From Anthoceros angustus (Eukaryota > Plantae > Anthocerotophyta): DNA of 64,000 nt. Both the position numbers and the translations under genes were made by a program. This document shows positions 5,602 to 62,600 of this stretch, in pieces. Location of the stretch: positions 2,046,001 to 2,110,000 of the forward strand of contig MU008163.1 in assembly GCA_010909165.1 (NCBI GenBank), read 5' to 3'. Position 1 is the stretch's first letter. Every line of letters begins with the position of its first letter. The notes below the pieces were generated by a model. It saw only the letters and a list, made by a program, of their open reading frames with translations. It was not told the DNA's origin and ran no database searches.

Positions 5602-8186
5602 CTAGTCAGCCGATTTCATAGTGGCATCCATATCCTTATCTCCCACAACATCAGTGGAATTTAAACGAGGACTCACTTGAGGACTTTGCACAGTTTTCTC
5701 CACATTTTCGAACTTGGAGGTGGCCCACGGGGCAGTGCCCACAGTCGGGCTCCTGACTCTTTCTACCGTAAGAAGGGCAACGCCATCCCGAGCATCATAC
5801 CAGTCATGCCCACATTTCAGACACTCAAACTGATAACGGTCTCCTTTCCCTACTTGAAAGAAGTCCTTCACCCCAACATCCCGCTCATGACAAAACTTGC
5901 AAGTTAAGTCCGTCATTTGCATGGCCTTGGGCTGAACCGGCTCTTTGGAAGAGGTCTGCTCGGCGGATGTTAAGCCCTCCTTGAGCTCGCCGGGAGACAT
6001 GTTCAGCACCGTCGTGGAATCCAGCTCCTTGAGCAGCAGCCTGCGTGCAAGTCTGGTACAGTTTCTCAAATTGAAATCCAGACTCCTCATCTTCAAGTTA
6101 TACTTGTGCACATCAAACCCCAGAGCATCAAACACGCAGTTCTCCAGTGCCGACACCGCTTCCACAGCCGTGGCTGGCCAGGACAGATCCCCTCCCTGCT
6201 TCTCAGCCCCGTTGGCCGTTCTCCCACCTGTTGAATCCCCCCCTGCACTTCCCGAGACCGTGGCATCGGTCCCTCCCTGCTTTCCCCCATGGCCCCCATC
6301 CACAGCACCAGCAGCAGCATCCTGCATCCTCACATCCGGCTGCTCCTCTCCCGCCTCCTTCGACACCTCACTCTCCTTCTCCTTCCCCTTCTCTTCTGCC
6401 ACATCCCCGTTACCCTTCTCCCCAACAGCATCCAAGGGGCCTGCACCACCCCGATCCTCACCCTTGCCTTCGCCCTCAAGCCGTGCACTGGCAGCAAGCT
6501 CTCCCTTCTCCTCCCCCTTACCAGCACCTTCACCATCTTCCACCTTCTCCGCCTCACAAACATACTTCACGCCATGCAAAACCTTCTCCAACCACCTGGT
6601 CCTCCCCACGTTCAACTGCACCTTGCCGTACTTCTCCAAAATCCCGTACGCTTCACTCTGCTGCGGCGTCCTAGGCGTGTCCCTGGAACCCTCCTTCCCG
6701 CCATCTTCCAGTCTCACCTTGCCCGTCCTCTCCCCACTCCCATGATACTCCTGCTGCCGCTCCCCTCTCCCCGCATGCGACTGCTCCAGCTGCCTATCCA
6801 CCCTCAACGACGTCAAATTCCTCCGTTTCTTCGCCTTCAGAGCAGGATCCTCCTTCACCTGCTCCCCGCTAACCTCCGCCTTCACAACCTCATTCGGCAG
6901 ATCCCCCAGCGTCTTCCTGGTATTCTCCATCAGGGCCTCGATCTCCTTCTGCTTCGAATCCTCATAATCTTTATCATTCAGCTTCCACAACCGCTTCTCC
7001 GCCGCATCATACACTCTCCGCACAATATGCCCGGGATGCTTCGACTGCTCCGGCAACTGCTTCCCGGGAGGAATAAAATGCACCACGCACTTATGCATAA
7101 CCGACTCCGCCGGCACATCATCCCGATGGAAGCTGTAGAAAAGCTCCCGCGCATCCACCGACGAGTGGTACCCGCCCACCGCCTTCTCCGCCTCCTCCGG
7201 GCGGTAAAACCACTGGCCACCGACCGTGAGCGAGCCATCCACACTCTGCTTGATCTCCTTGATCATGGCCACATACGGCTTCTGCGTCTTGCTCTCGGGA
7301 GTGACCAGCACCGTGTCCTCCAGCTGGTACTGCGCCATCTTCCGCCTCGAAGGCCCTGTAATGCTTCACCAAGCTCCTTCCCCGCCATCTTCCAGTCTCA
7401 CCTTGCCCGTCCTCTCCCACTCCCATGATACTCCTGCTGCTCCTCTCCCCGCATGCGACTGCTCCAGCTGCCTATCCACCCTCAACGACGTCAAATTCCT
7501 CCGTTTCTTCGCCTTCAGAGCAGGATCCTCCTTCACCTGCTCCCCGCCAACCTCCGCCTTCACAACCTCATTCGGCAGATCCCCAGCGTCTTCCTGGTAT
7601 TCTCCATCAGGGCCTCGATCTCCTTCTGCTTCGAATCCTCATAATCTTTATCATTCAGCTTCCACAACCGCTTCTCCGCCGCATCATACACTCTCCGCAC
7701 AATATGCCCGGGATGCTTCGACTGCTCCGGCAACTGCTTCCCGGGAGGAATAAAATGCACCACGCACTTATGCATAACCGACTCCGCCGGCACATCATCC
7801 CGATGGAAGCTGTAGAAAAGCTCCCGCGCATCCACCGACGAGTGGTACCCGCCCACCGCCTTCTCCGCCTCCTCCGGGCGGTAAAACCACTGGCCACCGA
7901 CCGTGAGCGAGCCATCCACACTCTGCTTGATCTCCTTGATCATGGCCACATACGGCTTCTGCGTCTTGCTCTCGGGAGTGACCAGCACCGTGTCCTCCAG
8001 CTGGTACTCCGCGCCATCTTCCGCCTCGAAGGCCCTGTAATGCTTCACCAAGCTCCTTCCCCGCCCCGACTTCTTGATCACCGGGCCCACCGGCTTGGCC
8101 TCGCCTCCTTCCTCCTCGTCAGAATTCTGGTCATCATCATCCCTCTCCGCATCCAACCCCGACGTGCTCAGCTTCCGCTTCCCCAT
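5602..8186 (-). CDS. AIPP3: BAH + TFIIS-central-like + C-terminal Zn-ribbon protein (AIPP3/BDT1-like), interrupted by a ~680 bp internal tandem duplication
   Basis: BAH domain (YQLEDTVLVTPE...GQWFYRPEEA...RELFYSFHRDDVPAESVMHKCVVHF), TFIIS_M-like segment (KYNLKMRSLDFNLRN), Zn ribbon CKFC...CLKCGHDW. Joining 8186-7981 to 7303-5602 gives a single intronless 1908-nt frame (635 aa). Confidence 0.8.
6691..8066. repeat. Tandem duplication, unit ~680 bp, inside the BAH gene
   Basis: 6691-7374 is repeated at 7375-8066. The junction lies in shared CTCCTTCCC(C)GCC microhomology; copies differ by small indels. Confidence 0.95.
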
Positions 8187-11019: not shown

Positions 11020-12545
11020 ACTTGGCTGAGGAGGTTTATGGAGTCGTGCTGGAGCGGTGTTCAGGGAGTGGTGTTCTCAAGGGTTTTGGAGCGGTGAGCG
11101 GTGTTCTCAAGGGCCTTCTATACATGGTCTTTTCCAGGGTCTTCTCCAGGTCTTTTTACAGGGCTCCCCAATATGATGCGGGCCACCCAATCTACGCCTA
11201 TCAAGGACACCCCCTGCCCAGTCTGCTCTCAGCTTTGCTCTGGGGTCAAGGGGGTGAAATGTCACATTGGGCACAAGCACAAGGATTTCGACAAGACTAC
11301 TTGGGAGGTACAAGTACGGCTTGCTTCTTCTTCCGGCTCACCCAATCCCTCTTCCGGCAGCCTCCTTTGGGCCGCCGCCAGAGTCTTGGGAGTGGCTTCG
11401 GAGGCAGTCCAACCACCTGCTGGCGTTGTTTCACACTCGTTTCCCGAGCCCCCATCTTTTTCGGCGGCTCCCGAGGCGTCTTCACGATGATGTTCGCCTT
11501 GCGTATCGCCTTACATTGGATCGCCTTGCGTATCGCCTTACATTGGATCGCCTTGTGTATCGCCTTACATTGGATCGCCTTGCGTACCGCCTTCCATTAG
11601 ATCACCTTGCGCAGGACCCTGTGGATGATGAGGCTTGGACTCTTTTTCTTTTCCTTCCTAGGTGGTGTCTTCGGCGCTCTAAGGGCGGTTCTTCGGGCCA
11701 TAGGGAGGTGGCTTCCCGCCTCCGCCGCTTTCGGGTGGGGGATTGGGAGGCTCTACAAGAGGAGTATCTTTTGGCGGCAAGATCTAGGTTGGGGTCGGCC
11801 AAGGTCGACCAGGTTTGTTCGGACCCTGGTAAGGCGCGTCTCCGAAGGTGTCATATGTTGGGTCGGAATGGTGAGTACGCGCGGGCCGCTAGGGTTCTCC
11901 GCCCGGAGCCGATGGCGCCGGTTTCTGAGGACACCATCGCCACGCTCCGTGCCCTTCATCCGGCCCCTAGTGACAGCATTCCACAGGATACCTTCGACTT
12001 CGTGCCCGAGGAGCTTTTTTGTCTAGACAGGGCGGTCTTTGGTGCCCTCCATCGCCTCGACTCTCCTCGGGTGGTCCGCTGTGATGCTTTATGACCACCT
12101 TCGAGATTATTTCTCCCAAGAGGATCCATCTAGTGGTTTTTTCAGAGCTTTTCATTCTGGCGGCTGCTGTGGCCAGAGGCGAGGTCCCTCGCAGGATCTC
12201 CCAGGTCTTGGGGGCTTGCAGGTTACTAGCTTTGGAGAAACCTACGTCGGGTACGCCTATTGCTGTCGGAGAGGTGTTCCTGCGCCTCATCAGCCGCAGC
12301 ATTGCGATTCAACTTCGGGAGCACTTCCGAAGCACCTTTGCCTCCACCAATTTGGGATTGCCACTCCAGGGGGTTGTGAGTCTGCGGCCTTTGGTATCAG
12401 ACGGTCCTCGAGTCTCACCCACATTGAGTTGCTCTACAAGTAGATGTCGAGAATGCTTTCAACACTGTGTCTAGGGCTGTCATTTCCTTGGAACTCAAGG
12501 ACGCAAATGGGCCTCATTCCATTTGTTCGCTCCTTCTACCGTTGC
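11020..12545 (+). mobile_element. Degenerate, 3'-truncated CRE/NeSL-like (RLE-class) non-LTR retrotransposon
   Basis: N-terminal C2H2 finger CPVCSQLCSGVKGVKCHIGHKH; pre-RT segment WTLFLFLPRWCL...GEYARAARVL...LRALHP; RT motifs LLALEKP..PIAVGEVFLRL, HQFGIATPGGCES, VDVENAFNTVSR, LIPFVRSFY across frameshifts. Confidence 0.85.
11496..11600 (+). repeat. 27-bp tandem repeat x~4 (RLAYRLTLD in the retroelement frame)
   Basis: CGCCTTGCGTATCGCCTTACATTGGAT units are directly visible. Confidence 0.9.
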
Positions 12546-35460: not shown

Positions 35461-35949
35461 CCGCTTCCAAAGGCTCGGATTGGAGCTTGCACATGATAGT
35501 GGACATGACAAAGATCCTAAACTACATTCTAGGCTTGATTGAAGCCGTCAATCTCTTTGTTGTGGATGGTAATAGGCCTCCCAATTCTCTGGTTTCTACT
35601 CAAACCCTGTTTGTTGTGGATGGTAATAGGCCTCCCAATTCTCTGGTTTCTACTCAAACCCTGCCTAACGTGTCACAACATGAATGTTGTTTGTCACCAC
35701 TTCCTCTAGACTCGGCTTGCATTCAAGAAAGTTGGAAATAAGGCAGACCACGTGATTTTGTGTCACGTTGGTTAGTCTAACTAGACCTAGTTATAAATAG
35801 TAGTTAGTTAACTAACAGGCTAGTTGAAAGGACATACCCCTTCGTAAAACCGCTATAAAAGGCCTACCTATGGACCTTTAAATATAACTCTTAATATAGT
35901 TGCTAGAAAGCATGTTCTAGGCAATCGCTTCCGCATGGGATCTCTAACT

Positions 35950-35961
35950 TGGTATCAGAGC
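35950..35961 (+). other. Primer-binding site complementary to the tRNA-iMet 3' end
   Basis: TGGTATCAGAGC immediately after the 5' LTR. Confidence 0.92.
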
Positions 35962-37470
35962 AATGATCCTCCATGGACTTGCTAGCTATTTCTTCCTTGT
36001 TTGTGATAGTAGAGAGGAAAGGAAATAGCATATTAAATTAGATTTGTGCTTTTGTGAGAGTATGAGGGACTCCAATGGTCCCAAATATACGTTTCACAAA
36101 GAAAAAAAAGATAAGAAAATTCACTTCAAAAGATCATTGAGGATTTCTATAATCCAAGATGTGAGTCTTAAGTGTTTGTGATCATTTTCTATACAAAGAA
36201 GCAGGTTCTCGAGAACATGATGGGCTGCAAGGGCTCTAGATTTATGTCTCGTCAATCTAAGTGTTCTTTATTAGAAGCAAATAGTTTAGAATTTGCATAA
36301 GTTAAAAGCAAACAAATCTAGATCGAAAGGTTTGCATTGTTAAAATAGTCTTTTAGGGAGTCTGAAATGCTCGCCTAATCTAGAGTTTTTAACTAGAAAA
36401 TAGAATTTCTAAAAGGAAAAAAAATCTATCTCGGTACTGATCCGTGTATAGAGCGCTTAACTATGAAGTTCTGATGGTATAATATCTACGAGCGACAGTT
36501 CTTCCCTTGCTTATTACCGAAGGTGGACCTACATACCATAAACAGTGTTCAAGTCGCTATCATCTTCGCGCACACAGATCAGAGGCGCCGCTCTCCCGTT
36601 CTCAAAACTTCATGGCCAGGGATGAGCGCTCAGTCGAGGCATTCTCTTCTGATTAGTCTCAGGTCTGTCTGATTCGGGGCTGGGAGGCCCGGATAGAAGA
36701 GTGCAAAATTTTCTGGCTTAAGAACGTGCTAGCCGACAATTTGTGGCTGAATTCACTCCGGGAGGAAAGGCTACTAGGGCGCCCAAGGATGGTGGTGAGA
36801 CTCCTCTATCATAGCGACGAATCGGTCTGGCAATTTCCTACGGCCCCTCGCCCACCGAGGTCTGCACACATGAGGCACGGCGCGCCTGGGCCGAAACGTT
36901 GCCCCCTTGTCGAAACGACAACTTAAGTTGTCGTTTCACCAAGAGGAGGGGAATGGGACGCCCGTTCGTTGGAACGGCATACCCCTCTTTAATTATATTG
37001 CACCCCGTTCTCCTGAATTATTTTTAATTATATTTTTGATCATCTTTATTGTGCATAAAATTATCTTCTGGTGTTTTTATATATGAGGAAAATTTTCAAT
37101 TACTTTTGTGATGTCAAATCATATCAGCCAAGATGATATTTCTTCTTGGATAAATTCTTCCGGTTGACCAAGTATAATTTAGAAGAATTGTGCGCGCTAA
37201 AGGCTGAAACTTTGGGCAACAAAAAAAATATGCAAAACGTCCGTTTGGTTTGTGACAACGCCGTTTCTAGTGAGTAGGTCCAAGTCTACAAGACTAAGAT
37301 TGGGTTGAGGAGCAGCACCAATTTTGCGAGCAGGTCCAAGCCTGCAAGATCAAAGTCATGGTACTTGCAAATTGTTTTTGCTACCCTTTATAAGCGCATT
37401 TTTCTCTAAGTGATCTAGTCGAAGTATCGTAATATTTCGACTGCTCGCTCTTACGTGAAAGCTCTTAAGG

Positions 37471-38415
37471 ATGGATGCTCAACCACCACCAACACCAACA
37501 ATCTTCAACATGATGAACGTCAGCACTAACTTCAAGGAGAAGGATCGCTTCGACGGAACAAAATTCGAAGTATGGTCTCGTCGAATGAAGACTGCTTTGA
37601 ATACTCGGGATCTGCTCCCGATTGTCAAAGGTACCTTCCCCAAGCCGTCCGGTCCCCAGTCCACTGTCGACACCTGGGTACAGCAGGACAGACAGGCTAT
37701 GCATATGCTAATCTCCGGATTAGACAAGGTTACCTTACACCATACTGATGATGCCATAACCTCTGCTGAAGGTTGGAAGCAACTCATAGATATCTATCAA
37801 TCTACTCATATGATGACTCTTGTTACGGTATGATTGGAGTCTTACTCATTACGGATGCAACCTAACGACAATGTTGCGTAGCACATAAGCAAGTTTAAGT
37901 ATCTACGCGCTCAGCTTGCAGCACTTGGAACGGTAATCTCCGAATTTGATGCTACGGTCCAACTCTTAGCTAGCCTCCCGGCTAGTTATCAAACCTTTGT
38001 CTCGTCCCAGAATCAGACGGTGAGAAATGGTTACCAAGCTGTTAGGTCGGGCCAGGTCCCGAATATTACTGTGTCAGATATTGCTGGAGCTCTCCTGCAA
38101 GAGGAATCTGCCAGGTTCAATGCTGGCACATCTCAACACGGGGGAGAAAGGATTATGTTCGTGACTAAGGGAAGGTCACATCAGAATAAGAACAAGAGTT
38201 TTCTAGGATCTCGAAAGCCTAACTCTTTGCCATCATCTTCTTCCAAGACCCCTAAGCATGAGGGGAACTGTAATTGGTGCCAGATACTAGGCCACTGGGA
38301 GAGAGAGTGCCGGAAGAAATTGGCTGGTGAGGCGCGTCAGGAGCCAAGGACGGGGAATATGTTCGTCGTTTCCAGGCCCAAGACTCGACAAGATCAGCTT
38401 GACCTCTTGCTCTAA
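37471..38415 (+). pseudogene. Copia-type gag, interrupted by in-frame stops
   Basis: RFDGTKFEVWSRRMKTAL, W..QDRQAMHMLISGL, AVQLLASLPASYQTFV-like segment, CX2CX4HX4C knuckle CNWCQILGHWEREC; in-frame TGA and TAG inside. Confidence 0.88.
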
Positions 38416-39699
38416 TTGTGTGTTTGGTGGATTATGCATACAGGACTTTGTGGCTGATCGCCCTTGTGGCCTTAGCGCATACCTATATCCACAAATACAT
38501 GTTAACAATTCAGCGAAAGATATCATCATCGTCGCAACATCTTCAAAGGATGGCCCAATCTGAGGCAGACCGTAGCATGGCAATGCTCTACTCACCCTTC
38601 TTTGTTTCCAGATGCTAGTTGCACTGCTTCTGCCTTGGCTTCTTCACCTCAAGCGGTTCCTATACTCACTGTTCGTGCTTGAGAGGGGGAAGATGAATAA
38701 GCGATGATGAGGCATGCCAATGAACTTGTCATTGGGATCATAATGTTTTGGACGTTGGTGCAGTACTCGGCGTACCTAAAGTACCTTCTGGACAAAGTTC
38801 TGAACTTGGAGTTTAACGTACAAGTCGTCTTCACTACCTCTAACTCAATGCAGATTATCTCTTTCGCTCAAAGTATTGCTGCTGTAGAGGGAGTTGCGTG
38901 AATGCTACCTTTAAGAGGCAAGCTCTATGCCTGAAGCAGCTTAGTGCAGTTGTCAACAATTGATGAAGAATATGGTTACTTAGCCTTCACAAGGAAGTGA
39001 CCAGAGACTGTAGTAGCTATGTGGTGCTATGCAGCTTGCTCATTTGGTAGGACCTTCACGAAGTTTGTTCCATCACTCGAGATGCAAGACTGCTGCCGAA
39101 GGTTTGATTCTTTTCGAAGTCACAACCGGTGTACTTCTCCTTGAGTTCCTGTGTGGCATCACAGACTCAATGCGCAGAGTACGACTGGGAGCTGAGACGA
39201 CCGAATTGAATATGCCTAAAGCAAAGCCCCTTGTGATAGTGGTGATCTCTTTTTGTTATATGGAGCTTTCAAGACACAGCAATCCGCACGTGTCTGAGAG
39301 GGAGAGTTGGAAATAAGGCAGACCACGTGATTCTGTGTCACGTTGGTTAGTCTAACTAGACCTAGTTATAAATAGTAGTTAGTTAACTAAGAGGCTAGTT
39401 GAAAGGACACACCCCTTTGTAAAACCGCTATAAAAGGCCTACCTATGAACCCTTAAATATAACTCTTAATATAGTTGCTAGAAAGCATGTTCTAGGCAAT
39501 CGCTTCTGCATGGCATCTCTAACTAAGAACGTCGGAATAGGACATGTTAAGAGTTTGTTCGGACACAAAATCCATCTCAAGGCATGCGGCATGGAACTTA
39601 GCAGTGGAGGTGCAGACATTGAGGAGATTCAGGCACAAGCAAAGGCCGAAGCACAGGCGCAAGCAAGAGAGGAACTAGCAACTGCTTGGCAAGGGCTTG

Positions 39700-46930: not shown

Positions 46931-47519
46931 TACCTAAGCTGTTTGATTCTCTGAATTTCTAACTGGAGGATTCACACCCCTGTACAATGTGGTAGGGTAT
47001 TAGTTCAGCATACAGATGCGATATGTGATCTAGGGGAACATTCTTTGATTATTGTTACAGTACGATGTTCTTTGTTGCCTGCAGTGATTTCAAGACAAAG
47101 ACTCTGATATCACCAAGGCCTTGTAAACGAATATATGTATCATTATTTCACTCCTTTTAGACCAGTTTTAGACTTTAAAATGTTTGATGCCAGGGAATGG
47201 GATGCTGCAAGGCCTAGTCTTCAAAGGTTTACAAAATCAGTGTTGCCTGTGATGACAGCAAGTGGCTGGATTCTACAGTTGATGACATATCAAGATTTCC
47301 ATGGGAAACAAACAAGCCTTGACATGTAAGGATGCCGTGGGAAACATTTTAGCGAAACAAGCCTGGAATTAGTTGACTGGAAGGTTTGACCTGGAATTAG
47401 TTTACGGAAGGTTTGAGAGAAGAGTTGTGTATAGCGTGTATATTGGAACAACAAAGGAAAGAGGGTTGATATTGGAACAACAAAGGAAAGAGGGTTGTCT
47501 TGTGACCCTTATGTTTTCA

Positions 47520-47780
47520 ACCTTCGCCCATAATAAGGCGTGGGGTTCACAGCCCATAATAAGAAGTGGGGTAAGTGGGGTTGGCAGCCCAATAAGAAGT
47601 GGGGTGGGGTTCACTGCCCATAATAAGAAGTGGGGTAAGTGGGGTTGGCGGCCCAATAAGAAGTGGGGTGGGGTTCACAGCCCAATAAGAAGTGGGGTGG
47701 GGTTCACAGCCCAATAAGAAGTGGGGTTCACAGACCGTATTATGAGCTCACAGCCCTAATAAGAAGTGGGGTATGTGAAC
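47520..47780. repeat. ~30-bp minisatellite (CACAGCCCAATAAGAAGTGGGGTGGGGTT-like), ~7 variable units
   Basis: Directly visible. Confidence 0.9.
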
Positions 47781-48649
47781 CCCATAATCAACCCACTTTT
47801 GACCTATGTTCTTTTACATTGTGCACAATTTTGTATGACACTACTTCATGCTAAGTTGGCTTTATGTGGAGGATTATGCCTTTACATTGGAAAAATAATA
47901 ATTGGAAAAATAATAATTGGAAAAATAATAATTGCAAACTTTTGACCAATATATCTAGTGAAAACGTGAAAGAACATTTAAAAAACTCACAAACCTTGTA
48001 GAAGCCATTACCATCTCGGTACTCTAGGTTTTTAATATGTCGGAAAGGCCTTTCCTTGAACTATGTCAGAAAAAAAATATATTTTTTGAGGAAAAATATC
48101 CTCAAATATTTGATTTATTTCATAAGAAACATAGCACACATTAAAAACCCACACCATCCAACGAGTACCCAGATACTAATGGCTACCCTTTTCTGAAAGG
48201 GTTAAAAGATCCCTACTAATGGCTACCCTTTTCTGAAAGGGTTAAAAGATCCCTCGCGTTTGAACCTAATATATTGGTAAGAAGTTTTCAATTATTTTTT
48301 CCAGTGGCAGAATTCCCCACAAAAAACTAACTCAACGTGGACTAGTTTCATACAAAAATTGTGTACAATGTTAAAGAACTTGCTTCCAAAGACTCAATTT
48401 GAGTGGGTCAATCATTCTGGGAATACGTCTGCTTATGACTAATGGGTGATACACATACTCTCACACACTCATTCATACGAGGCCAGTATGCACATACAAG
48501 CTCATAAATATGCCAAACAAATATTTGTTTAGTTTAGGCGAAAGTGCTATGCCTATTATGGAACCATTTTCTGTTGAGGAATAGATGAACCACACACAAC
48601 GAAACTTGCATATGCTAACATGGACATGTGGTAGATGTACTTGATTAAT

Positions 48650-48900
48650 CTAGGCAAATGGACATGTGCATACAGTTGGGTTGGTATGCTTAAATGGAAA
48701 TGCAGCAGATGTACTTCATAGATCCAGGCTGATAGACATGTGCAAACAATCAGGCTGATATGCTAAGATGCACATGCAGCAGATGTACTTCAGAGATCCA
48801 GGCAGATAGACATGTGCATACAGCCAAGCTAGTATGCTAAGATGGACATGCAGCAAATGTTCTTCAGTGATCCAAGTAGATAGACATGTGCATACACATT
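48650..48900. repeat. Diverged ~70-bp tandem repeat
   Basis: Recurrent ATGCAGCAGATGTACTTCA.AGATCCAGGC.GATAGACATGTGCA. Confidence 0.7.
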
Positions 48901-49636
48901 CAAGGATCAGCTTATGGTCAGTACAACAAGCAAGGAGGACAATCGAAGCTTGTTGAACAAAGTTTGCCCGGTGAAAAGCAAAATGGATAGTTAGGTGTTC
49001 CTATGCTTGGGCCTTCTGCACATGAACACACATATGGACTGTTGGCTGCATTGCCAAGATAATAGCCTGACTGAAACAGTGGGCTAGGAAGGCAGGCTCT
49101 TGGCGTGCTCTGTAGAGATTGCTTCATAGTTCTGAGCTAGGAAGGCAGGCTCTTGGCGTGCTCTGTAGAGATTGCTTCATAGTTCTGATAAGAGATAGGA
49201 GAACGTGCTCTAGAGTTTTGATTATAATACTATTTTGTAGTATGCCCGAGCCATCTTCTCGAACACCTAAATCAAATTTCAATGCCTCACTATTGCTGAA
49301 AGCACACAACTCGCTACACACAGCCTTCACTACCTGGGTACCCAACTTTTGCTGAAAGCACACAAATCGCTTTACACAGCCTTCACTACCACGGTTCCAG
49401 CCCTATGTGAGAAACGCTGCAAGAAGCGTAAAGAATCCCTGACCTTGCAGGCCTAATTGTTAGATATTGTTGCACTTTCCGTTCTCGCTTTCCCAATCCG
49501 TGGCACAATCTATTTGATAGGCGTCATTCTCTCTCACCGTTGGAAAGCACGAGAGGGAAAAAGTGTCCAACACCACATAGAACCCGGGAAGCCGGCGGCT
49601 TGGCCACGAAATAATGTCATATATATATCGAAGTAA

Positions 49637-52812
<3,176 letters not shown>

Positions 52813-53037
52813 TTTCGGACCCAGAAGTTGGATTATGGTGAGAGCATATTGCAGGGAGGGCAGAAAATTTTGCCAGGTGTCCAGCGACCCAAAGATAAGA
52901 TGAGGGTGAGAGTGTATCTTAGGGAGAGGCAGAAAATTTGCCATGTCTCCAGTGAGTTAATTCCATATTGACGGGGGTTTACCTGGCATTTTTGGCCTAT
53001 TTTTGTTTTAATAATATTTGAATACGGGAAAATTGGA

Positions 53038-55340
53038 ACATGGAGACTTAATGATATATGCGGAGATGCGAAGTGCGATTGGGAACAACCCTGAAGCTAT
53101 CTACCGCCCGCCCTAGATGCCCTAAGAATACGGAAGGGTTTACTTACCACTGAAGCTGAAGATGCTACAGTCTCCCACATTCAAAAAAACCCCAAGAACA
53201 AAGAAGGGCTTACTTACCATTGAAGCTGAAATGCTAAGTCTCCCACAATCAAAATAATCTTGAAGGGCCTACCACCCCCTAGATGCCCCAAGAATCGGAA
53301 AGGGCCTACTTCCCACCAAAGTTGAAGTTGCTTGTATTCAAAGTCTGTCCTCAAAATAACATTTGCCAACGCTATGTGCCGAGCGATGGAAACAATCGCC
53401 AAAAGAAAGGGACCACGCAAGATAGGGGATACCAACCCCAATTCTTACGGAAAAATATGTTGAGGGCGAGCTCAAAGCTGAAGTTGCTTGTGTCTCTTGC
53501 CAACGCACTCCGCGGAGCGATGGAAACAGGTTGCCGAAAGAAAGGGACCACACAAGATAGGGGGAGACCAACCCCATTCTTACGGATAAATATGGTGAAG
53601 AGCACATCCTCAACATATTTATCCGTCCTGAGCAAGTGTATGTGATATTGCTAATCTGGCTCAAGCACAAGGAGCCCCTCCGTCTGGACCCGTAGTGGAT
53701 TAGAGTGTACAGTGTTGCGGTGAAGAACTTTGACAGTGTGGCGTGCCAACCAGAGCAAAAAAGGCAGGAACTTTTGGAGGCACTACGACATAGTGATAGG
53801 CATAGTGTCTTCCATAAGGCTTTGCACCAGCAATGTTTTAGAAGGTGTACGCAACTCCTATTGCATGTAATGTTGGCAACTCCAGCTTGCCAGCGACATA
53901 TTTCAGCAAAAGCGCAACCAAAGTGCGGCACAAAACATAATTGCGAGGCATGATTACTGCGTGTACATTCACCACCGTGATGCGGGAAGAGTATGATTAC
54001 CCGTGACGTCCGGTGCTTTGAGTCCAAGAAACAGGTGACTCCGAGGCGCGCTTTTTTCCTAAACCATGGCGTGGAGATGATGTGACCCTAACCTCTCTAG
54101 CCAACAAAGACGAAGATGAGGATGCGGTTGGAGACCAGGACAACGAGGGGTTTGGCGATGGCCATGAGGACGGGGAACATATCTAGGCCCCGATGATGAA
54201 GACATGGAGACTTAATGATATATGCGGAGATGCGAAGTGCGATTGGGAACAACCCTGAAGCTATCTACCGCCCGCCCTAGATGCCCTAAGAATACGGAAG
54301 GGTTTACTTACCACTGAAGCTGAAGATGCTACAGTCTCCCACATTCAAAAACCCCAAGAACAAAGAAGGGCTTACTTACCATTGAAGCTGAAATGCTAAG
54401 TCTCCCACAATCAAAATAATCTTGAAGGGCCTACCACCCCTAGATGCCCCAAGAATCGGAAAGGGCCTACTTCCCACCAAAGTTGAAGTTGCTTGTATTT
54501 GTCATCCTCAAAATAACATTTGCCAACGCTATGTGCGAGCGATGGAAACAATCGCCAAAAGAAAGGGACCACGCAAGATAGGGATACCAACCCCAATTCT
54601 TACGGAAAAATATGTTGAGGGCGAGCTCAAAGCTGAAGTTGCTTGTGTCTCTTGCGCTCCCAGGCGATGGAAACAAAGTTGCGAAAGAAAGGGACCACAC
54701 AAGATAGGGGAGACCAACCCCATTCTTACGGATAAATATGGTGAAGAGCACATCCTCAACATATTTATCCGTCTGGCAAGTGTATGTGATATTGCTAACT
54801 GCTCAAGCACAAGGAGCCTCCTAAATGCGGACCCGTAGTGGATTAGAGTGTCGGTGTTGCGGTGAAGAACTTTGATGTGGCGTGCCAGCAGAGCAAAAAA
54901 GGCAGGAACTTTTGGAGGCACTACGACATAGTGATAGGCATAGTGTCTTCCATAAGGCTTTGCACCAGCAATGTTTTAGAAGGTGTCATAACTCCTATTG
55001 CATGTAATGTTGGCAACTCCAGCTTGCGACAGCTACTATCGAAGCAAAAGCGCAACCAAGTGCGGCACAAAACATAATTCTGCGAGGCATGATTCTGCGT
55101 GTACATTCTGAGCCCGGCTGGAAGTAGTTAGGACACGGGCGTCCGGTGCTTTGAGTCCAAGAAACAGGTGACTCCGAGGCGCGCTTTTTTCCTAAACCAT
55201 GGCGTGGAGATGATGTGACCCTAACCTCTCTAGCCAACAAAGACGAAGATGAGGATGCGGTTGGAGACCAGGACAACGAGGGGTTTGGCGATGGCCATGA
55301 GGACGGGGGAACATATCTAGGCCCCGATGATGAAGACATG
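53038..55340. repeat. Tandem duplication, unit ~1.17 kb
   Basis: ACATGGAGACTTAATGATATATGCGG starts at ~53038 and again at ~54203; junction microhomology ACATGGA; copies differ by many indels. Confidence 0.93.
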
Positions 55341-58300
55341 GAAGAGGACAATGGGGCAGAGGAGGATGCAATAGAGCGGGGATTCGGGTATGTCCATGGC
55401 ACTCGCAAGGTTGAAGCCATCTCGCCAGTTGCAGATAGGGCCTCGAGGAATAAGAGGAAAAGGATTGAGAGTGCTCTCCATCCGGCGTGGAGATGGCCTT
55501 GTGGGAAGGGTAGCAAGTTTGCACGAAGCATCCGATGGATGATGACAGGCTGGCGATGACCAAAGCTGAGGTTGGGCGAGATGTTGCGAGGGAAGCAATT
55601 GCAGCAAAGAGTGGGAGTCCACGTTAAAGGCATCCATCGGTTGTAGACCACCGGAAGAACTTTGTCGATTCGGCAAGGTCCGGAAGCTAGACCTGGCTTG
55701 GGTGGAGGCTTTGATGCAAAAGATGAAGCATTCCACATGGGTGGCTGGTGTGCTGCCAATGATTGTCATCGTGGACCCGGCCCAGTGCCCCAACAAGAAC
55801 TCCTTTGACATGGATAGGGTGGATCATGGGGTCTACAAATTTTATATGTTGGGAGGGAATCATTCCTTCCAGGCCAGATCTAGATTGTTGGACTTGTATC
55901 CATTGGTTCAAGAGCACAGATGGATGGATGCATATGTTCTTGCTGGCCTCACACATGAGAAGATGAGGTTAGTTGCCACTGATCACAACACCATTGCGGA
56001 TGCTAGGAAGACTTTTACTTTCATCGACCGTGTGAGGTACATCAGAACCGAGATGAAGGCCAGGCTAGCGGATGGGCTGAAGTGTGACTTAGACTGGAAG
56101 TTGGAGATATATTCCCCGTTGGGCAGGGTACCTAAGTGGGATGCGGTTGGAGACCGGACAACGAGGGGTTTGGCGATGGCCATGAGGACGGGGGAACATA
56201 TCTAGGCCCCGATGATGAAGACATGGAAGAGGACAATGGGGCAGAGGAGGATGCAATAGAGCGGGGATTCGGGTATGTCCATGGCACTCGCAAGGTTGAA
56301 GCCATCTCGCCAGTTGCAGATAGGGCCTCGAGGAATAAGAGGAAAAGGATTGAGAGTGCTCTCCATCCGCGTGGGAGATGGCCTTGTGGGAAGGGTAGCA
56401 AGTTTGCACGAAGCATCCGATGGATGATGACAGGCTGGCGATGACCAAAGCTGAGGTTGGGCGAGATGTTGCGAGGGAAGCAATTGCAGCAAAGAGAGTC
56501 TGGGAGTCCACGTTAAAGCTGTCCATCAGCAGTTGTAGACCACCGGAAGAACTTTGTCAGTTCGGCAAGGTCCGGAAGCTAGACCTGGCTTGGGTGGAGG
56601 CTTTGATGCAAAAGATGAAGCATTCCACATGGGTGGCTGGTGTGCTGCCAATGATTGTCATCGTGGACCCGGCCCAGTGCCCCAACAAGAACTCCTTTGA
56701 CATGGATAGGGTGGATCATGGGGTCTACAAATTTTATATGTTGGGAGGGAATCATTCCTTCCAGGCCAGATCTAGATTGTTGGACTTGTATCCATTGGTT
56801 CAAGAGCACAGATGGATGGATGCATATGTTCTTGCTGGCCTCACACATGAGAAGATGAGGTTAGTTGCCACTGATCACAACACCATTGCGGATGCTAGGA
56901 AGACTTTTACTTTCATCGACCGTGAGGTACATCGAACGAGATGAAGGCCAAAGGATGGGTCAAGTGTGACTTAGACTGGAAGTTGGAGATATATTCCCCG
57001 TTGGGCAGGGTACCTAAGTGGGATGCAGCCAAGCATGGACCTAAGCTCAGTTATCACCGCCTCGTGGACAATAGGACTCTAGATTATTCTGTTGCTAAGG
57101 TGGATGATGGGGTGTGGAAGTACGTGGATGAAATCTTTGAGAAGTGGGAGACGAAACAATTGCCTAAACAGGTGGAAGCAGCTCGAGCTCTCACAGCCAA
57201 ACAGTTGAAGTCCCGCAGGAATTCAAGGAAGACAGCAGCAGCCGTTAGAGCAAACTTGGTCATTGACACAAAGGAGCTTAGTATAACGGTGAGAGTATGG
57301 AAGTATTACCAGGGCATCGAATAGTCTGCAGCAAGGAAACAACAACTTGAAGACAACATGCATGAAAGTCATGGCTGGAGAATTGACATTGAAACAAATG
57401 TTCGTCTGGGTGGACAAGGCCAAAAAACTCAACCTCATCCATGTTACACTAGCCAAGCATTTGCACTGTGAGATATTTAAAGAGGTTCAGGAACGATATC
57501 TAGATTATTGCATAGTGAATCAGATTAGTAACTTCCAGCCTGCTTTCAAAAAATCTGGTCAGTGGTCGACGAACACATAGCTATTCCCAAATCAGAGTTG
57601 ATGTCTTGTGGTGCTTCTTGTTCTTTCCTCATGCACAATGGATGCCTTAACACCGGACATTCTAACAGTAGAACGTCCGGTAGTACTTGACTAGTGTGTG
57701 GTGCCTTCCATGTCTGCAGCGTGCTAACACTTGCCTTGAATGGGGTGCCCTACCTGAGGCCTTCAAGGAGCACATATTCAAGGCCAGGGGTTGGAAGCAA
57801 ATGGAGGAGTCGCAACGTGCCTTGATGTCAACCACATTTGAGGCTAAGCTGACGACCATCATGAACGACTCCAAGCCTGACAAATCCAGCAACTGGGATA
57901 TTGTGTGGCAACATATTGAACATGGCCGGGTTTGTGGAGCCTCGACCGTATGCTCTGCTCTTGTTGGACCTCCCTAGAGGCTTGGATCTAGATCCCCAAT
58001 CAAGTGAATATGACACAAGATTTACCAAGCCAGAGTTTGAAGGGGTCATCATGCAGTTCAAAGGCATCACCACATCCTAGATATTTCGTATAGTGATATT
58101 TCATTCTCCGGATGACACCTTAATGAGAGAAGTATTAATGGAGGCATGCAGGGGTGCTGTGACGACATGTTACTGGCATAAAACCAATGTCATGGCATTT
58201 TTAGAAGACAAGTTGTATGATGTAGGTGACTTTTTCACTTGTGCCGCTAGCAGCTTGGATAAGGACTGTGTGCCTCAGCCATTTGTACTGAGAGAAACCA

Positions 58301-58571
58301 CGCAACTTGGCTGTGGAGTGACAACTTTGTTTGCTGACCGAGCAATCGAACTAAAATTATGTTACAACACAACAGATGATCGAGTTGTTTGCCCTTATTA
58401 GAAGCCCCTAAGACTCTGGAAGAGTGAGATTGGGTGTTAGACGGGTGTGTTGGGTTGGGATCTGGTAAGATAGTAGTTGTGCAGTTATCCCATAATGTCA
58501 TCTCTGTTGATGTGGATCCCAGGTGCGCTCAATTCATGGATCATTCATTCATCTTTGAAACAATTCCATAG
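55215..58571 (+). pseudogene. Decayed gene: acidic region + ParB/Srx-like domain + helical region + beta-class N4/N6 DNA amino-methyltransferase (N6_N4_Mtase-like)
   Basis: ParB-like VRKLDLAWVEALMQKM...LPMIVIVD...FYMLGGNHSFQAR. MTase motifs in beta order: WDIV(C)GNILNM; YALLLLDLPRG (motif IV position, DLPR at 57967-57978); CYWHKTN; CPY*KPL (HPTQKP-like); DWVLDGCVGLGSG...NVISVDVD (motif I, 58428-58517). Several frameshifts and TAG stops. Confidence 0.8.
55253..57025. repeat. Tandem duplication, unit ~885 bp, covering the ParB-like domain
   Basis: GGATGCGGTTGGAGACC at ~55253 and ~56140; junction microhomology GGATGC; indel-rich differences. Confidence 0.93.
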
Positions 58572-59129
58572 ACAACTGGCTGATGGAAAAGGAGGAGGTA
58601 GGCGAGGAGCCAGGCTATGCAGGCAGTCTGACCTTTCATAAGGAGCCCATGGTGAACAACATGGCTAGTGGCCGGGGTTCCTATGTGTCTTTGAAGTAGA
58701 GATCGACGAGGAAGTCTGAGACCAAAGGTCATATGGCATGTGGTAAAGTGGCTCCAGTCGAGAACCCAATGGTCACCGAGGATGCGGAGCAACAGGTGAG
58801 AGAAGCATAGGAGCCTCCTTCTGCGGCTTGGGTTGACAGATCTGGATGTAGGTTTGGAGAACGCTGCTCCAAAGAACGAGCTGTGACTAGTAGACAGTGG
58901 ATAGGCTGCGTTTTTGTTTAGGGGAATCTGGTAGGAGGATACGGTGTAGGTCTTAAGCACCGGACAGCTGGTGGTAGGTGGTAGATCGTTCAGCCCAACA
59001 TGCCATGACATGCCATCGTACACAGTATTCGCTTTTATAGGCTGCATACAGGCGTTCACAATCATCGCCTGTTTTCACAGATGGTTCGCAGTTTAAAACA
59101 CGTTTAAAACACCCTCACACACTGCTTGA

Positions 59130-59620
59130 TGGGTGTGATCAGACAGATGTAGTAGTGATCTGAATGCTGTAAGCCTTGCGTGTTTACAAATCCTGGTGGC
59201 ACACTGCCTGCTGGTGTTCCCCACCCCGTGACATTGGTCTCCCTCTTGCAAGCACGGGGAAGCGTGGGAAGCCTGGCTATAAAGAGGGGAAGGATGTTCA
59301 CGCGCAAATTAAAGGAGGTCAGCAGGACGAGTTGTATGGGCAGATGAGAGAAAGTCGGGTGTTGAAGCGGATAGACATGTTAGCGGGGCAGTTCTCAAAG
59401 CGTGTACCAGTGCAGCAGGTCCGGTATCAGGCAAACAGGGCCATCGTGTATGTTGGGACTTGGTAGACATACATGCAAAATGTAGCAGCTTAGAGAAAGC
59501 TCGTAAAGTTCTTAACAGCTTGCCCACAAAAGATGTGGTGTCGAGGACTGCTATGATTGCCGGAAATGTTGAACAAGGGCTCGGGACTGTATGCGGGCTC
59601 GCACTTTCAAAAGAGCCAGA
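59130..59620 (+). pseudogene. PLS-class PPR fragment, decayed
   Basis: VTLVSLLQA, EGKDVHAQI, and LVDIHAKCSSLEKARKVLNSLPTKDVVSRTAMIAGNVEQG matching the S/P-motif consensus LVDMYAKCGSLEKA.EVF..LP..DVVSWTAMIAGY; frameshifted. Confidence 0.8.
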
Positions 59621-59636
59621 TAAACGTTCAGGCTCG

Positions 59637-62600
59637 TTAAAATGGGGACTGACACAACGGGCAAGTTGACTTGTGTGAAGTGTCGAACCACTTGTATAGG
59701 CATGCAGAATGGAATTTGTGCTTGCAGGTTTTGCAAGCAAGCCTTGGAAGGGTGTGATTCGAAGTGTGAATGATGCTGTAGCAGATAGGGCATTCTTCCA
59801 CACCCTCAAATTCTCGATCGACGTTGCGTTTCCAGATCTGGACAGCTTCTGAGACAGCACCATTCTGCAGATGCACGAGACAGTTAGGTGAAATTTGGTT
59901 CCTCCAAGCACCAGGCATGACACGGCAAGTGAGGAAGCAAACCTGATTTCTCAAAAATGTTGCTATCGAAAGAAGCCATTTTCGTGATCTGGTTTCACTG
60001 ATCCCCATTCTCCGAGTCCACTCAACCTCAGGTGCTCGCAGAGGATACGAGGCTGGGAGGCGAATCAGTATGTCCATGCCTGCCTCCTCCTTCTTGTAGA
60101 ATGCAGTGACTTCTCGTGTGGTGCGGTTTGCTTTGATCGATAAGGTTTCTTCTGCAACCGCTGAAGCTTGCACCTGAAGCAACAGAAGGGTGAGCACTTC
60201 CGTACTCAATGAGATTATATTAGCTGCTTAGCAGTCGAAAGGTGGATGCAAACTCAGATAAACCTGGGAAAACTCCTCAGCTAGAAGCTCCGGACTGCAG
60301 TGAGTTGTGGTGAAGACTTCAATCGCTGTAGCAAGTCCCCGATTGTGTATACCCGTAAACCAAATCCGAACGCAGGCTGGCAGCACCCGCAGTAGTAATC
60401 CATAGATTGCACCTGCCAGTGATGCCATTTCCTCCTTCCCGACTGGCCACAAGCCTTCCACAGCAAATGCGACGGACCCAGTATTTGTTGCTCGTCTTGC
60501 AGCAGTGGCAGGACCACTCAACTTGGCTCCAGCTGAAGAAATTTTCCTTGACCCAGACGAGGTACGCTCCAAGGGGATATGCTGGAATAGGCAATCAAGA
60601 AGCCTGCTAGGGATGTCCAAATCCTGAGCATACTGCACCAATCTCTCCCTTGCTCGAGACATGGGTGGGAGATTTTGTAGTCGCGTCAAAAAGAGAGACC
60701 AACTCAGGAAGTAACGAACCTGCCTCAAAGACGGGAAAGTCAGACCTCGATACCAGATCCTGCAAACACAGTCTTCAAAGATGACAATGCAGAGACACAA
60801 TTGCTTGCAAGGACTTACCCGCAATGATGACGTGAGTGGAGAGCTCTGAATTACAGCCGAAGGAGCCTCCAACTGGGACGAGAGCTCTTGCCGAATCTGC
60901 GCAAGTGCTTGAGGAGGAGAACCATCATCTCCACTCCCAGCACCACCCTCTTCCCCCTCATCCGTTTGCCCTCCATGATCTGCACTGACCACTCCTTTGG
61001 TTACAGCCAACTGCTCCAGTGGTTCCGAGGATAGGAACTGATATGCAGTCCATTGCAAGGAGTCAATTGGCTCAGGGCAGAACAGCAGTGCGTACAGAGC
61101 ACTGATGGAAGTGACCCCAATCCCCCACAGATCAGCAGCACGAACTGCTGCCTCCCTTGTTCTGCCTGACGTGCTGACAGCAACATCAGAAATGCTGTCC
61201 CACAGCCTTGTATCCACTTTCCGCCCTGATGCAACAACCGATCTAACTCGATCTCCATCATATGAGGCAGCTGCTGCTGCCTCAGCCATGCCTGTTGCAA
61301 GAAGAAGTCGTAATATATCTGCCATCGCCCTGATGTCTGCCATTTCCCAACTAGCTTGCTTCAGCTGCTCCCAAGAGTCTGTTCCAATGGCACTCTCAAA
61401 GTCGGTAAGCGCCTTCACTAGAGAAACAACTGAAATAGCAATGGTAAAGAGTTTGCTAGCACTATTCCCCTCAACTGCATGGGGAAGAACCATCCCAAGG
61501 GCATCTTTGCTTTCTGGGATTGCCTCGACTACTGACTCTGTAAATTCCTCAAACATCAGAACTGCAGCCTCAAGCCACTTGCGCACTCGACTCAGGACAA
61601 ACTCCCAGTCATCTTTACTGAAACTTTTCCAGCAATAGGCAACTGTGACCGCAACTAGCTTGGCTAGACTCAGCTCCACATCCTGCTCCCACAAAGGGTC
61701 TAGCTTCAAATCCTCCTGAATTGGTATAGTGCGGAGTATTGCAGCTTGGGCAGCAACTGCTGCCCTAGCTTCTCGAGAGAACTGCTTCCGTAACAGAGCC
61801 AGAAGGAGCTCCCTCTCCTGTGCACTAATTACCGCAGTTGAAGCAGCCACCATGGTTGCCACTCCCCCAGATGGATTCAGTGGAAAGCATGACACTACCA
61901 GGCGAATCCAGAACAATGCATCTGATGCAAAACATACATTGCATGTCAATTTACAAAGCTCAACAAACAAATCAGCTACTAAGCCAAAAAACTGTCAACC
62001 AAGAGAAGGACCTCACCAGCACCTTGCACTCCCCTTTCAGAGGCAACCAGAGGGGGCCACCTTAATGCAGTGGTCAGCCATTCAGAAACTGATAACTCCA
62101 CATCTCTCGAGCAGCTTTCATCAGATTCCAAAATATTTTCCTTCAAGCTGGGTTCCTCAGAAATTCGCTTCCGTAAGACTGGCATCAAAACGGAAAGCAC
62201 TAGTGGTAAGACCTTCAAATTTTCTTGCACAGACAGATTGCCTGGGCGATCTTGGAGAACATGCTCAGAGAATATCGCATATGCATCAACCTTAGCATCA
62301 TGGCCTCCCCTTTCCAGCAAGGATCTTAAGAGGAGCAACAGTGCACGCAAAGGTGCACAACCAAAGTTATGGAGTTCATCTTCTCCGGTATCCCAGAGCA
62401 TCCCAAAAGACTCGCTGCTTTCAGTCTTTGCAATTGCTGAAACGCCTTGAAATAGTGAGCAAACTGTCATATCACAGAGCTCTCGCTCCGGCGTTCCTAC
62501 AGCAGCTTGCCCACACTCTTTCAAGAATGGTACTATGGACTGCATAGCCCCACCATTTGGCCACTGCCAGGTGCATAAAAGCTCTAACGCAAGCCACACT

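Follow-up and report, generated by a model that had tools for sequence, protein, structure and literature searches.

How does a land-plant chromosome come to hold a gene that reads like a phage DNA methyltransferase, and what did that gene do? The question is raised by a 64,000-nucleotide stretch of the Anthoceros angustus genome (assembly GCA_010909165.1, contig MU008163.1, positions 2,046,001 to 2,110,000; the whole stretch is from now on referred to as the window), in which an initial annotation had recognized a hidden, decayed gene joining a ParB-like domain to a beta-class amino-methyltransferase (MTase). Our analysis indicates that this pairing defines a eukaryotic protein family and that the window gene is probably the relic of an accessory gene of a DNA transposon, of the kind proposed to bind and methylate its own element's DNA.

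Using the ParB-like piece alone as query, a full HMMER search (phmmer, E up to 0.001) returned 65 proteins, several of which extend C-terminally and align back to positions 57925-58532, the MTase region of the window gene (E 1.2e-14 for P0027, 4e-9 for P0022 and 5e-6 for P0023). The gathering cut-off of Pfam N6_N4_Mtase (PF01555) was passed by 5 of 39 scanned relatives and phage DNA-methyltransferase PHROGs were matched by 5 of 15. A family profile built from 30 relatives, with the window sequence excluded, is collinear over the window gene, matching the two ParB copies with independent E-values (i-E) of 1e-52 and 3e-49, the helical part with 7e-9 and 3e-11, the MTase from motif IV to motif X with 5e-14 and motif I with 0.003. 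With the same profile, neither a domain match on the reversed window nor a second copy within the 64 kb was detected. Because relatives span both parts and the profile is collinear without a match on the reversed window, the sequence evidence indicates that the ParB-MTase fusion is genuine and did not arise from frame stitching. The permuted motif order of beta-class enzymes (IV before I) can be read directly in the window, where all peptides quoted in the initial annotation were found in place: SNWDIV and CGNILNM are split by a frame break in a TG run near 57905, DLPRG corresponds to 57967-57981, the stop codon within PY-stop-KP is the TAG at 58399, and the motif I peptide DWVLDGCVGLGSG at 58428-58466 is followed by VISVD.

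Support for the ParB and MTase assignments comes through the relatives, as Pfam reported nothing relevant for 10 of 10 window pieces of the gene. Window pieces had no significant match in PHROGs or among PDB sequences, the best hint being phrog_18293 (methyltransferase, E 0.3, motif I piece), and the family profiles found no relevant match among PDB sequences. It should be noted that word-seeded protein searches with the ParB piece were blank among 244 and 26 candidates, which reflects insensitivity, given that phmmer later gave relatives of 52-58% identity.

The window ParB piece folded alone gave an unusable model, with a predicted local distance difference test (pLDDT) score of 34.7. Fold comparison was made on the relative P0027 (789 aa), modelled with a 30-row alignment at a mean pLDDT of 69. 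Residues 534-772 of this model resemble beta-class MTases, namely CcrM (Z 21.3, root-mean-square deviation 3.8, 222 aligned), M.BceJIV (Z 21.0), M.PvuII (Z 19.1) and rotifer N4CMT (Z 18.0), with a Foldseek E of 5e-12 for the beta-class match. Residues 100-240 resemble the ParB/Srx fold: PadC (Z 9.6, root-mean-square deviation 3.1, 99 aligned), KorB (8.8), SerK (8.1) and sulfiredoxin (Srx, 7.6). These ParB scores are moderate, with six ParB/Srx-family entries ranking directly under beta and MT-A70 methyltransferases, and Foldseek against viral proteins found ParB/Spo0J matches at E 7e-5 to 4e-4. Atlas placement of the window ParB piece gave a eukaryotic cluster (0.97), DUF3723 (0.95) and ParB_N (0.93, 35%). 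The family is thus modelled as a predicted ParB/Srx-fold domain plus a predicted beta-class amino-MTase fold, and the initial claim of both folds in one gene holds by way of the relatives and the P0027 model.

The active-site motifs of the family are unusual. Motif IV, canonically (D/S/N)PP(Y/F/W), reads DLPR in the window and lacks the stacking aromatic. Its 18 matches in relatives are DFPY (7), DFPC (7), DAPY (2), DLPY (1) and DALY (1), so that D-x-P-Y is found in 10 of 18 (Chara, Adiantum and metagenome members) and DPPY, SPPY or NPPY in none; of the phage proteins checked, six out of seven carry DPPY or SPPY. Catalysis by N4CMT and CcrM is described as relying on the side chain of the first residue, the main-chain carbonyl of the first Pro and the Tyr ring (PMC10406627). 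Because the first Pro acts through its main-chain carbonyl, the catalytic atoms are kept in D-x-P-Y and members with this motif could be catalytically competent, whereas DFPC and DLPR have lost the Tyr ring. For DLPR, decay or a variant site had initially been considered; simple recent decay is disfavoured by the Arg codon AGA, none of whose three positions agrees with a Tyr codon, and origin through one recent point change is therefore unlikely. Motif I has the family form D-G/A-C/F-S-G-S-G-T-G and is not intact in the window (DGCVGLGSG versus DGCSGSGTG); the S-adenosylmethionine (SAM)-binding motif and P-Y-Q-K-P are well conserved in relatives.

Box II of the ParB-like domain reads G-x-H-S/T/C/G/K in the family; the GxxR arginine occurs in none of the 69 regex matches drawn from 75 proteins, a count that may take in a few non-ParB sites. 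The window reads GGNHS, with Ser at the arginine position, and the GGNH that had been equated with IxDGxHR is hence not an intact DGxHR/GxxR motif. Loss of this arginine abolishes nucleoside triphosphate (NTP) binding in tested ParB-fold proteins (PMC12704722). With the arginine absent, a canonical cytidine triphosphate clamp is unlikely in this family.

Of the members that carry a species name, many are from Chara braunii and the others from Adiantum nelumboides, Riccia sorocarpa, Mytilus californianus and Owenia fusiformis; no brown-algal name occurs among the relatives for which names were obtained. The closest relatives are three Logan proteins (52-58% identity), which group with the window sequence at 98/87 support in a tree of the 56 of 75 proteins with enough ParB coverage. 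Chara, Riccia and Adiantum members form separate supported clades, which fits lineage-specific expansions, with the deep branches not resolved. A GT-AG intron absent from the initial annotation lies at the point of divergence between the relatives P0003 and P0066, and the exon downstream of it lines up with the continuation of P0066; P0066 would represent the spliced form and P0003 the unspliced form. Phage records, 301 of them, match in the MTase part only; a coverage of 80% of the query is reached by none, and identity is 23-29% among the 25 matches listed. Judged by these sequences, the window gene is a member of an old eukaryotic family whose genes have an intron and encode a long helical insert. 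Of the initial proposal of a mobile or virus-like gene family of prokaryote/phage type, the repeated occurrence in the host is borne out (see below), whereas a stray phage-type gene is not what the relatives indicate. Most database members are partial gene models. Two animal members, P0038 (Mytilus) and P0053 (Owenia), comprise ParB and helical parts with no MTase in the gene model and sit on long branches of unsure placement. The Chara gene model P0002 (CBR_g41648) contains two ParB-MTase units in tandem, which suggests adjacent copies fused by annotation.

In the plant, the gene interval sits between the converging 3' ends of genes for alanyl-tRNA synthetase (AlaRS; + strand, ending at 52812) and the LTN1 ubiquitin ligase (- strand, ending near 59640). 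Coverage was taken from the contigs of one DNA run, X1, which contains 18% of the sampled words; depth in it is not a copy number. Over 52500-60500, 155 X1 contigs align, 125 of them less than 95% alike, PPR-like matches near 59.5 kb being counted in. In the flanks, cover comes from near-identical contigs and stands at depth 11-12. Inside the gene, where many short divergent contigs accumulate, summed depth reaches 97-135, with 5-7 different contigs overlapping at 56995-57012; this high cover starts about at the upstream repeats and palindrome (Table 1). The gene is multi-copy in the host. Both ends of the interval are entered by contigs at flank depth, which extend from AlaRS as far as 53500 and, on the other side, from 58638 into LTN1; within the gene, two short contigs of depth 6-8 align with 0-1 substitutions. 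Together with the intron and the eukaryotic relatives, these contigs argue against bacterial contamination and agree with the initial placement of the gene in the plant genome. Run X2, which we guessed to be RNA, has no cover over 53835-58373, and this has no bearing on expression.

The window copy is dead and cannot make the protein, which confirms the decay originally proposed. It is interrupted by three in-frame TAG stops (57322, 58078 and 58399), and its frame breaks near 56420, 57333, 57905 and 58425; compared with the family, the part from KP to motif I is ~8-9 residues short. The change of YQKP to Y-stop-KP and the fact that all stops are TAG fit CAG to TAG decay, and the observed/expected ratio of CWG is 1.07 in the gene versus 1.39-1.88 in four host coding regions. 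Sequencing errors may account for some of the breaks of one or two bases; the stops and the deletion are more likely genuine. The 885-bp duplication reported initially is present in the assembly, with differences clustered at the copy ends around a 361-nt identical core. However, both tandem duplications in the interval differ mainly by gaps (Table 1), and an X1 contig of flank depth (11.3) that covers 52500-53500 differs from the assembly by 11 gaps and no substitution, so that they are probably long-read assembly errors; for comparison, a dispersed repeat pair at 35727/39302 shows 9 substitutions and no gaps. A third gap-dominated tandem duplication (6691-7386 // 7374-8065; 1 substitution, 6 gap events), inside a gene labelled BAH-domain-like from reading the sequence, is probably an error of the same kind.

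What did such a gene do? We hypothesize that a DNA transposon carried the ParB-MTase gene as an accessory gene and left the window copy behind. The intact protein would bind its own element's DNA through its ParB-like and helical parts. A candidate site for the ParB-like protein is the palindrome upstream of the gene, which is unusually stable (z -6.6; 0 of 200 shuffles equally stable) and whose core, within the window, is confined to this site and its duplicated copy at 54602-54772. The MTase domain, once brought there, would mark or shield the element. Given the first-position Asp, which leans towards N6-methyladenine (6mA) under a rule quoted in PMC8885841, the mark would more likely be 6mA than N4-methylcytosine (4mC), bearing in mind that the motif is non-canonical.

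Several observations weigh against this proposal. No transposase was detected in 21 further open reading frames (ORFs) of the window, of which 6 lie within or next to the interval; the sole mobile-element domain in the scanned ORFs is a copia gag 15 kb upstream. At the locus, neither a terminal inverted repeat nor a target-site duplication could be made out convincingly, and there is one palindrome with a half-site in place of a long array. A 13-bp near-match at 53559/59246 was rejected as a terminal repeat, being at chance level and without target-site duplication (1 of 5 shuffles gave as many). Once the duplications are collapsed, the interval measures ~4.3 kb and would therefore be a truncated or non-autonomous remnant. 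The genomic neighbourhood of no relative was seen, since none of the candidate stretches was confirmed in viral (0/5 and 0/86) or metagenome (0/167 and 0/100) contigs. Comparison with an Ectocarpus transposon protein, taken up below, is one of domain make-up and not of sequence homology. With regard to activity, motif IV is not D-x-P-Y in 8 of 18 relatives (7 DFPC, 1 DALY), the GxxR arginine needed for NTP binding is absent in 69/69 motif matches, and the DLPR sub-lineage may never have been catalytic.

Other explanations differ in how much of this picture they retain. The same family and transposon origin could go with a pseudo-enzymatic MTase domain, the protein serving as an accessory factor in DNA binding or anti-silencing, comparable to the Dam-like domains found inactive in DIRS retrotransposons. 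No member has DPPY, SPPY or NPPY, the stacking aromatic is replaced by Cys in 7/18 and by Arg in the window copy, the box II arginine is lost, and inactive MTase domains have been described in DIRS1 elements (PMC4738411). On the other hand, D-x-P-Y is retained in 10/18, the SAM motif and P-Y-Q-K-P are well conserved, and DFPC could equally reflect decay or a single subfamily. Overall we put this somewhat short of an even chance; within a transposon-accessory origin, catalysis and a pseudo-enzyme role appear roughly evenly balanced. A large DNA virus, since endogenised, or a virus-like element may have carried the gene instead of a cut-and-paste transposon. This is suggested by the best viral structural matches of the relative (Megaviridae and Pandoravirus beta-MTases, phage ParB-MTase fusions) and by the enrichment of ParB plus N6_N4_Mtase fusions in phages (PMC12704722). 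We regard it as unlikely, as the fold matches are generic (11-25% identity), no relative was found in the viral contigs scanned, no viral hallmark domain occurs among the scanned window ORFs, and the interval is only ~4.3 kb long, lies between host genes and contains a spliceosomal intron.

A decayed paralogue of a domesticated host 4mC/6mA writer, comparable to Marchantia DN4MT1 or rotifer N4CMT, would share the beta fold of N4CMT (Z 18.0), and P0066 and P0003 differ as would be expected of spliced and unspliced versions, which suggests transcription somewhere. However, DN4MT1 has TSPPY without extra domains, N4CMT combines SPPY with a chromodomain, the host holds many divergent copies, and most database members are partial gene models; this makes a host writer very unlikely. 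Hardly any weight is left for bacterial or phage contamination joined by misassembly, or for chance motifs. Although assembly errors are frequent here and none of the listed contigs extends across the whole stretch, the closest relatives are eukaryotic, the intron is of GT-AG type, profile E-values go down to 1e-52, X1 flank contigs reach 53500 and 58638, and two inner contigs match with 0-1 substitutions. A transposon accessory gene remains the probable origin of the window copy.

The window copy is a dead relic and the family matters more. It is possible, albeit doubtful, that across streptophytes, from Chara to liverworts and ferns, ancient lineage-expanded mobile elements encode their own site-directed 6mA/4mC writer, in which a ParB fold without the NTP-switch arginine reads the element's palindrome and a D-x-P-Y site marks it. 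Plant transposons would then possess a private epigenetic mark apart from host 5-methylcytosine silencing. In brown, red and green algae, ParB-methyltransferases carried by transposons have been pointed out as what may be a new class of accessory proteins, for which our literature search found no activity test. Added here are the window plant, a fern, a liverwort and Chara, all with this architecture, with a ParB end largely invisible to Pfam, as well as two defined oddities (D-x-P-Y/C for DPPY, GxHS for GxxR) and a candidate palindromic site. Should intact members prove active, the elements themselves would encode a plant source of 6mA or 4mC that is not related to Marchantia DN4MT1. While the pairing itself is published for algae, we found no description of its streptophyte spread, or of the family in land plants or Chara (earlier mention is possible in subscription papers and supplements), and, among the matches listed, no paper on a DLPY motif.

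Table 1. Features of the gene interval (window coordinates).
Feature	Position	Strand	Remarks
Tandem duplication 53038-54208 // 54202-55342	53038..55342	.	probable assembly error; 19 substitutions vs 37 gap events
Three degenerate direct repeats, ~56 nt (spacing 70 and 96)	53111..53332	.	upstream of gene; fourth AAG[CT]TGAA core at 53475
45-bp palindrome (20-nt arms, 90% complementary, 5-nt loop)	53582..53626	.	upstream of gene; extra half-site at 53447
Acidic low-complexity N-terminal segment	55155..55556	+	basic RNKRKR patch, possible nuclear localisation signal; relatives' N-termini likewise acidic/basic
Tandem duplication 55253-56144 // 56139-57026 (885-bp repeat)	55253..57026	.	probable assembly error; 4 substitutions vs 14 gap events
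Predicted ParB/Srx-like domain, copy 1 (RKLD...LPMIVIVD...GGNH)	55612..56145	+	box II GGNHS; 65 relatives
Predicted ParB/Srx-like domain, copy 2	56474..56923	+	relatives' profile i-E 3e-49
Family-specific helical region	56971..57557	+	TAG at 57322, frame break near 57333; 52-54% identity to P0066/P0003
GT-AG intron, 162 nt (G/GTCAGT ... TGCAG/)	57558..57719	+	one base out of phase in assembly
Linker exon (LPEAFKEHIFKAR...WDIV)	57720..57900	+	aligns with P0066 285-297
Predicted beta-class amino-MTase, catalytic half	57895..58425	+	motif IV DLPR 57967-57978, YWHK, TAGs 58078/58399; P0027 1.2e-14, profile i-E 4.7e-14
Predicted beta-class amino-MTase, SAM-binding half	58428..58571	+	motif I DGCVGLGSG, VISVD; out-of-frame join; 44% identity to P0027 721-754

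Overall, the window is a compact plant segment with ~48% GC, short introns and pentatricopeptide repeat (PPR)-like repeats, a layout that would suit a non-seed plant with a small genome. One PPR-like stretch, which we take to be such from its motif shape, lies at 59490-59590 in or adjoining the LTN1 3' region; it is covered by dozens of divergent contigs in both runs and has no Pfam match. Two LTN1 introns (59864-59943 and 60171-60262, - strand, CT..AC ends) are skipped in an X2 contig, suggesting that X2 is RNA. Further upstream, a 223-bp direct repeat pair (96%, no gaps) surrounds the copia-type gag ORF 37882-38415, and 35727-39524 is probably the remnant of a 3.8-kb long terminal repeat retrotransposon. 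ORF 11258-12094 has no Pfam match and presumably resembles the N-terminal side of a non-LTR retroelement polyprotein. A cluster of short tandem repeats (29, 64, 74 and 53-bp units) is found at 47362-49188, upstream of the alanyl-tRNA synthetase gene.

Among known MTases, CcrM, M.BceJIV, M.PvuII and N4CMT share the predicted fold and the motif order with the plant family at 14-22% identity, their DPPY/SPPY motifs being absent from it. Marchantia DN4MT1 is likened in fold and motif order from its published description; as described in the respective papers, neither it nor rotifer N4CMT (PMC8885841) has a ParB-like domain. The window gene, with a ParB-like domain, no (T)SPPY and no intact reading frame, differs from DN4MT1/N4CMT-type genes on each count. 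Gene 0016 of Streptococcus phage Javan93 (418 aa; PMC12704722) shows the same domain order and beta motif order, and the MTase parts align (profile i-E 3e-9), whereas the family profile does not match its ParB part (i-E 0.93). The Javan93 protein has GGHQR and DPPY where the plant family has GGNHS and D-F/L/A-P-Y/C, and compared with phage fusions the plant family has an extra helical insert of ~300 residues, acidic tails and an intron. By language-model features, the nearest named cluster is formed by fungal DUF3723 (PF12520) proteins (ParB piece 0.95; P0066 0.91, with recognition below threshold). This is a lead only; PF12520 had no match in 39 relatives. DUF3723 proteins are Starship cargo, and the term occurs in two Starship papers.

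Other ParB-linked eukaryotic MTases have been described, land plants being said to have few (PMC4738411). The Ectocarpus element Sola1-1_Ec32 encodes a 1104-aa protein with ParB-like and N4C/N6A MTase domains that its authors propose to bind and modify the element's own DNA (PMC12477816). As in the plant family, both domains are found in one repeat-borne eukaryotic gene of comparable size (1104 versus 789 aa for the modelled relative); unlike the window locus, Sola1-1_Ec32 is a 21.5-kb brown-algal element with a transposase, 282-bp terminal inverted repeats and a 4-bp target-site duplication. Bostrychia Plavaka elements carry the ParB-like PAG3 beside inverted-repeat arrays together with a PF01555 protein, PAG2 (bioRxiv 10.1101/2025.02.11.637652). 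Here too the ParB-like domain escapes Pfam and adjoins inverted repeats, and a PF01555 methylase is present on the same element. In Plavaka, however, two genes are involved, one fusing ParB to a 2-oxoglutarate oxygenase beside a tandem repeat array and one joining the methylase with a SET domain, whereas the window combines ParB and methylase in one gene with one palindrome. By analogy, the streptophyte family may work like these algal accessory proteins.

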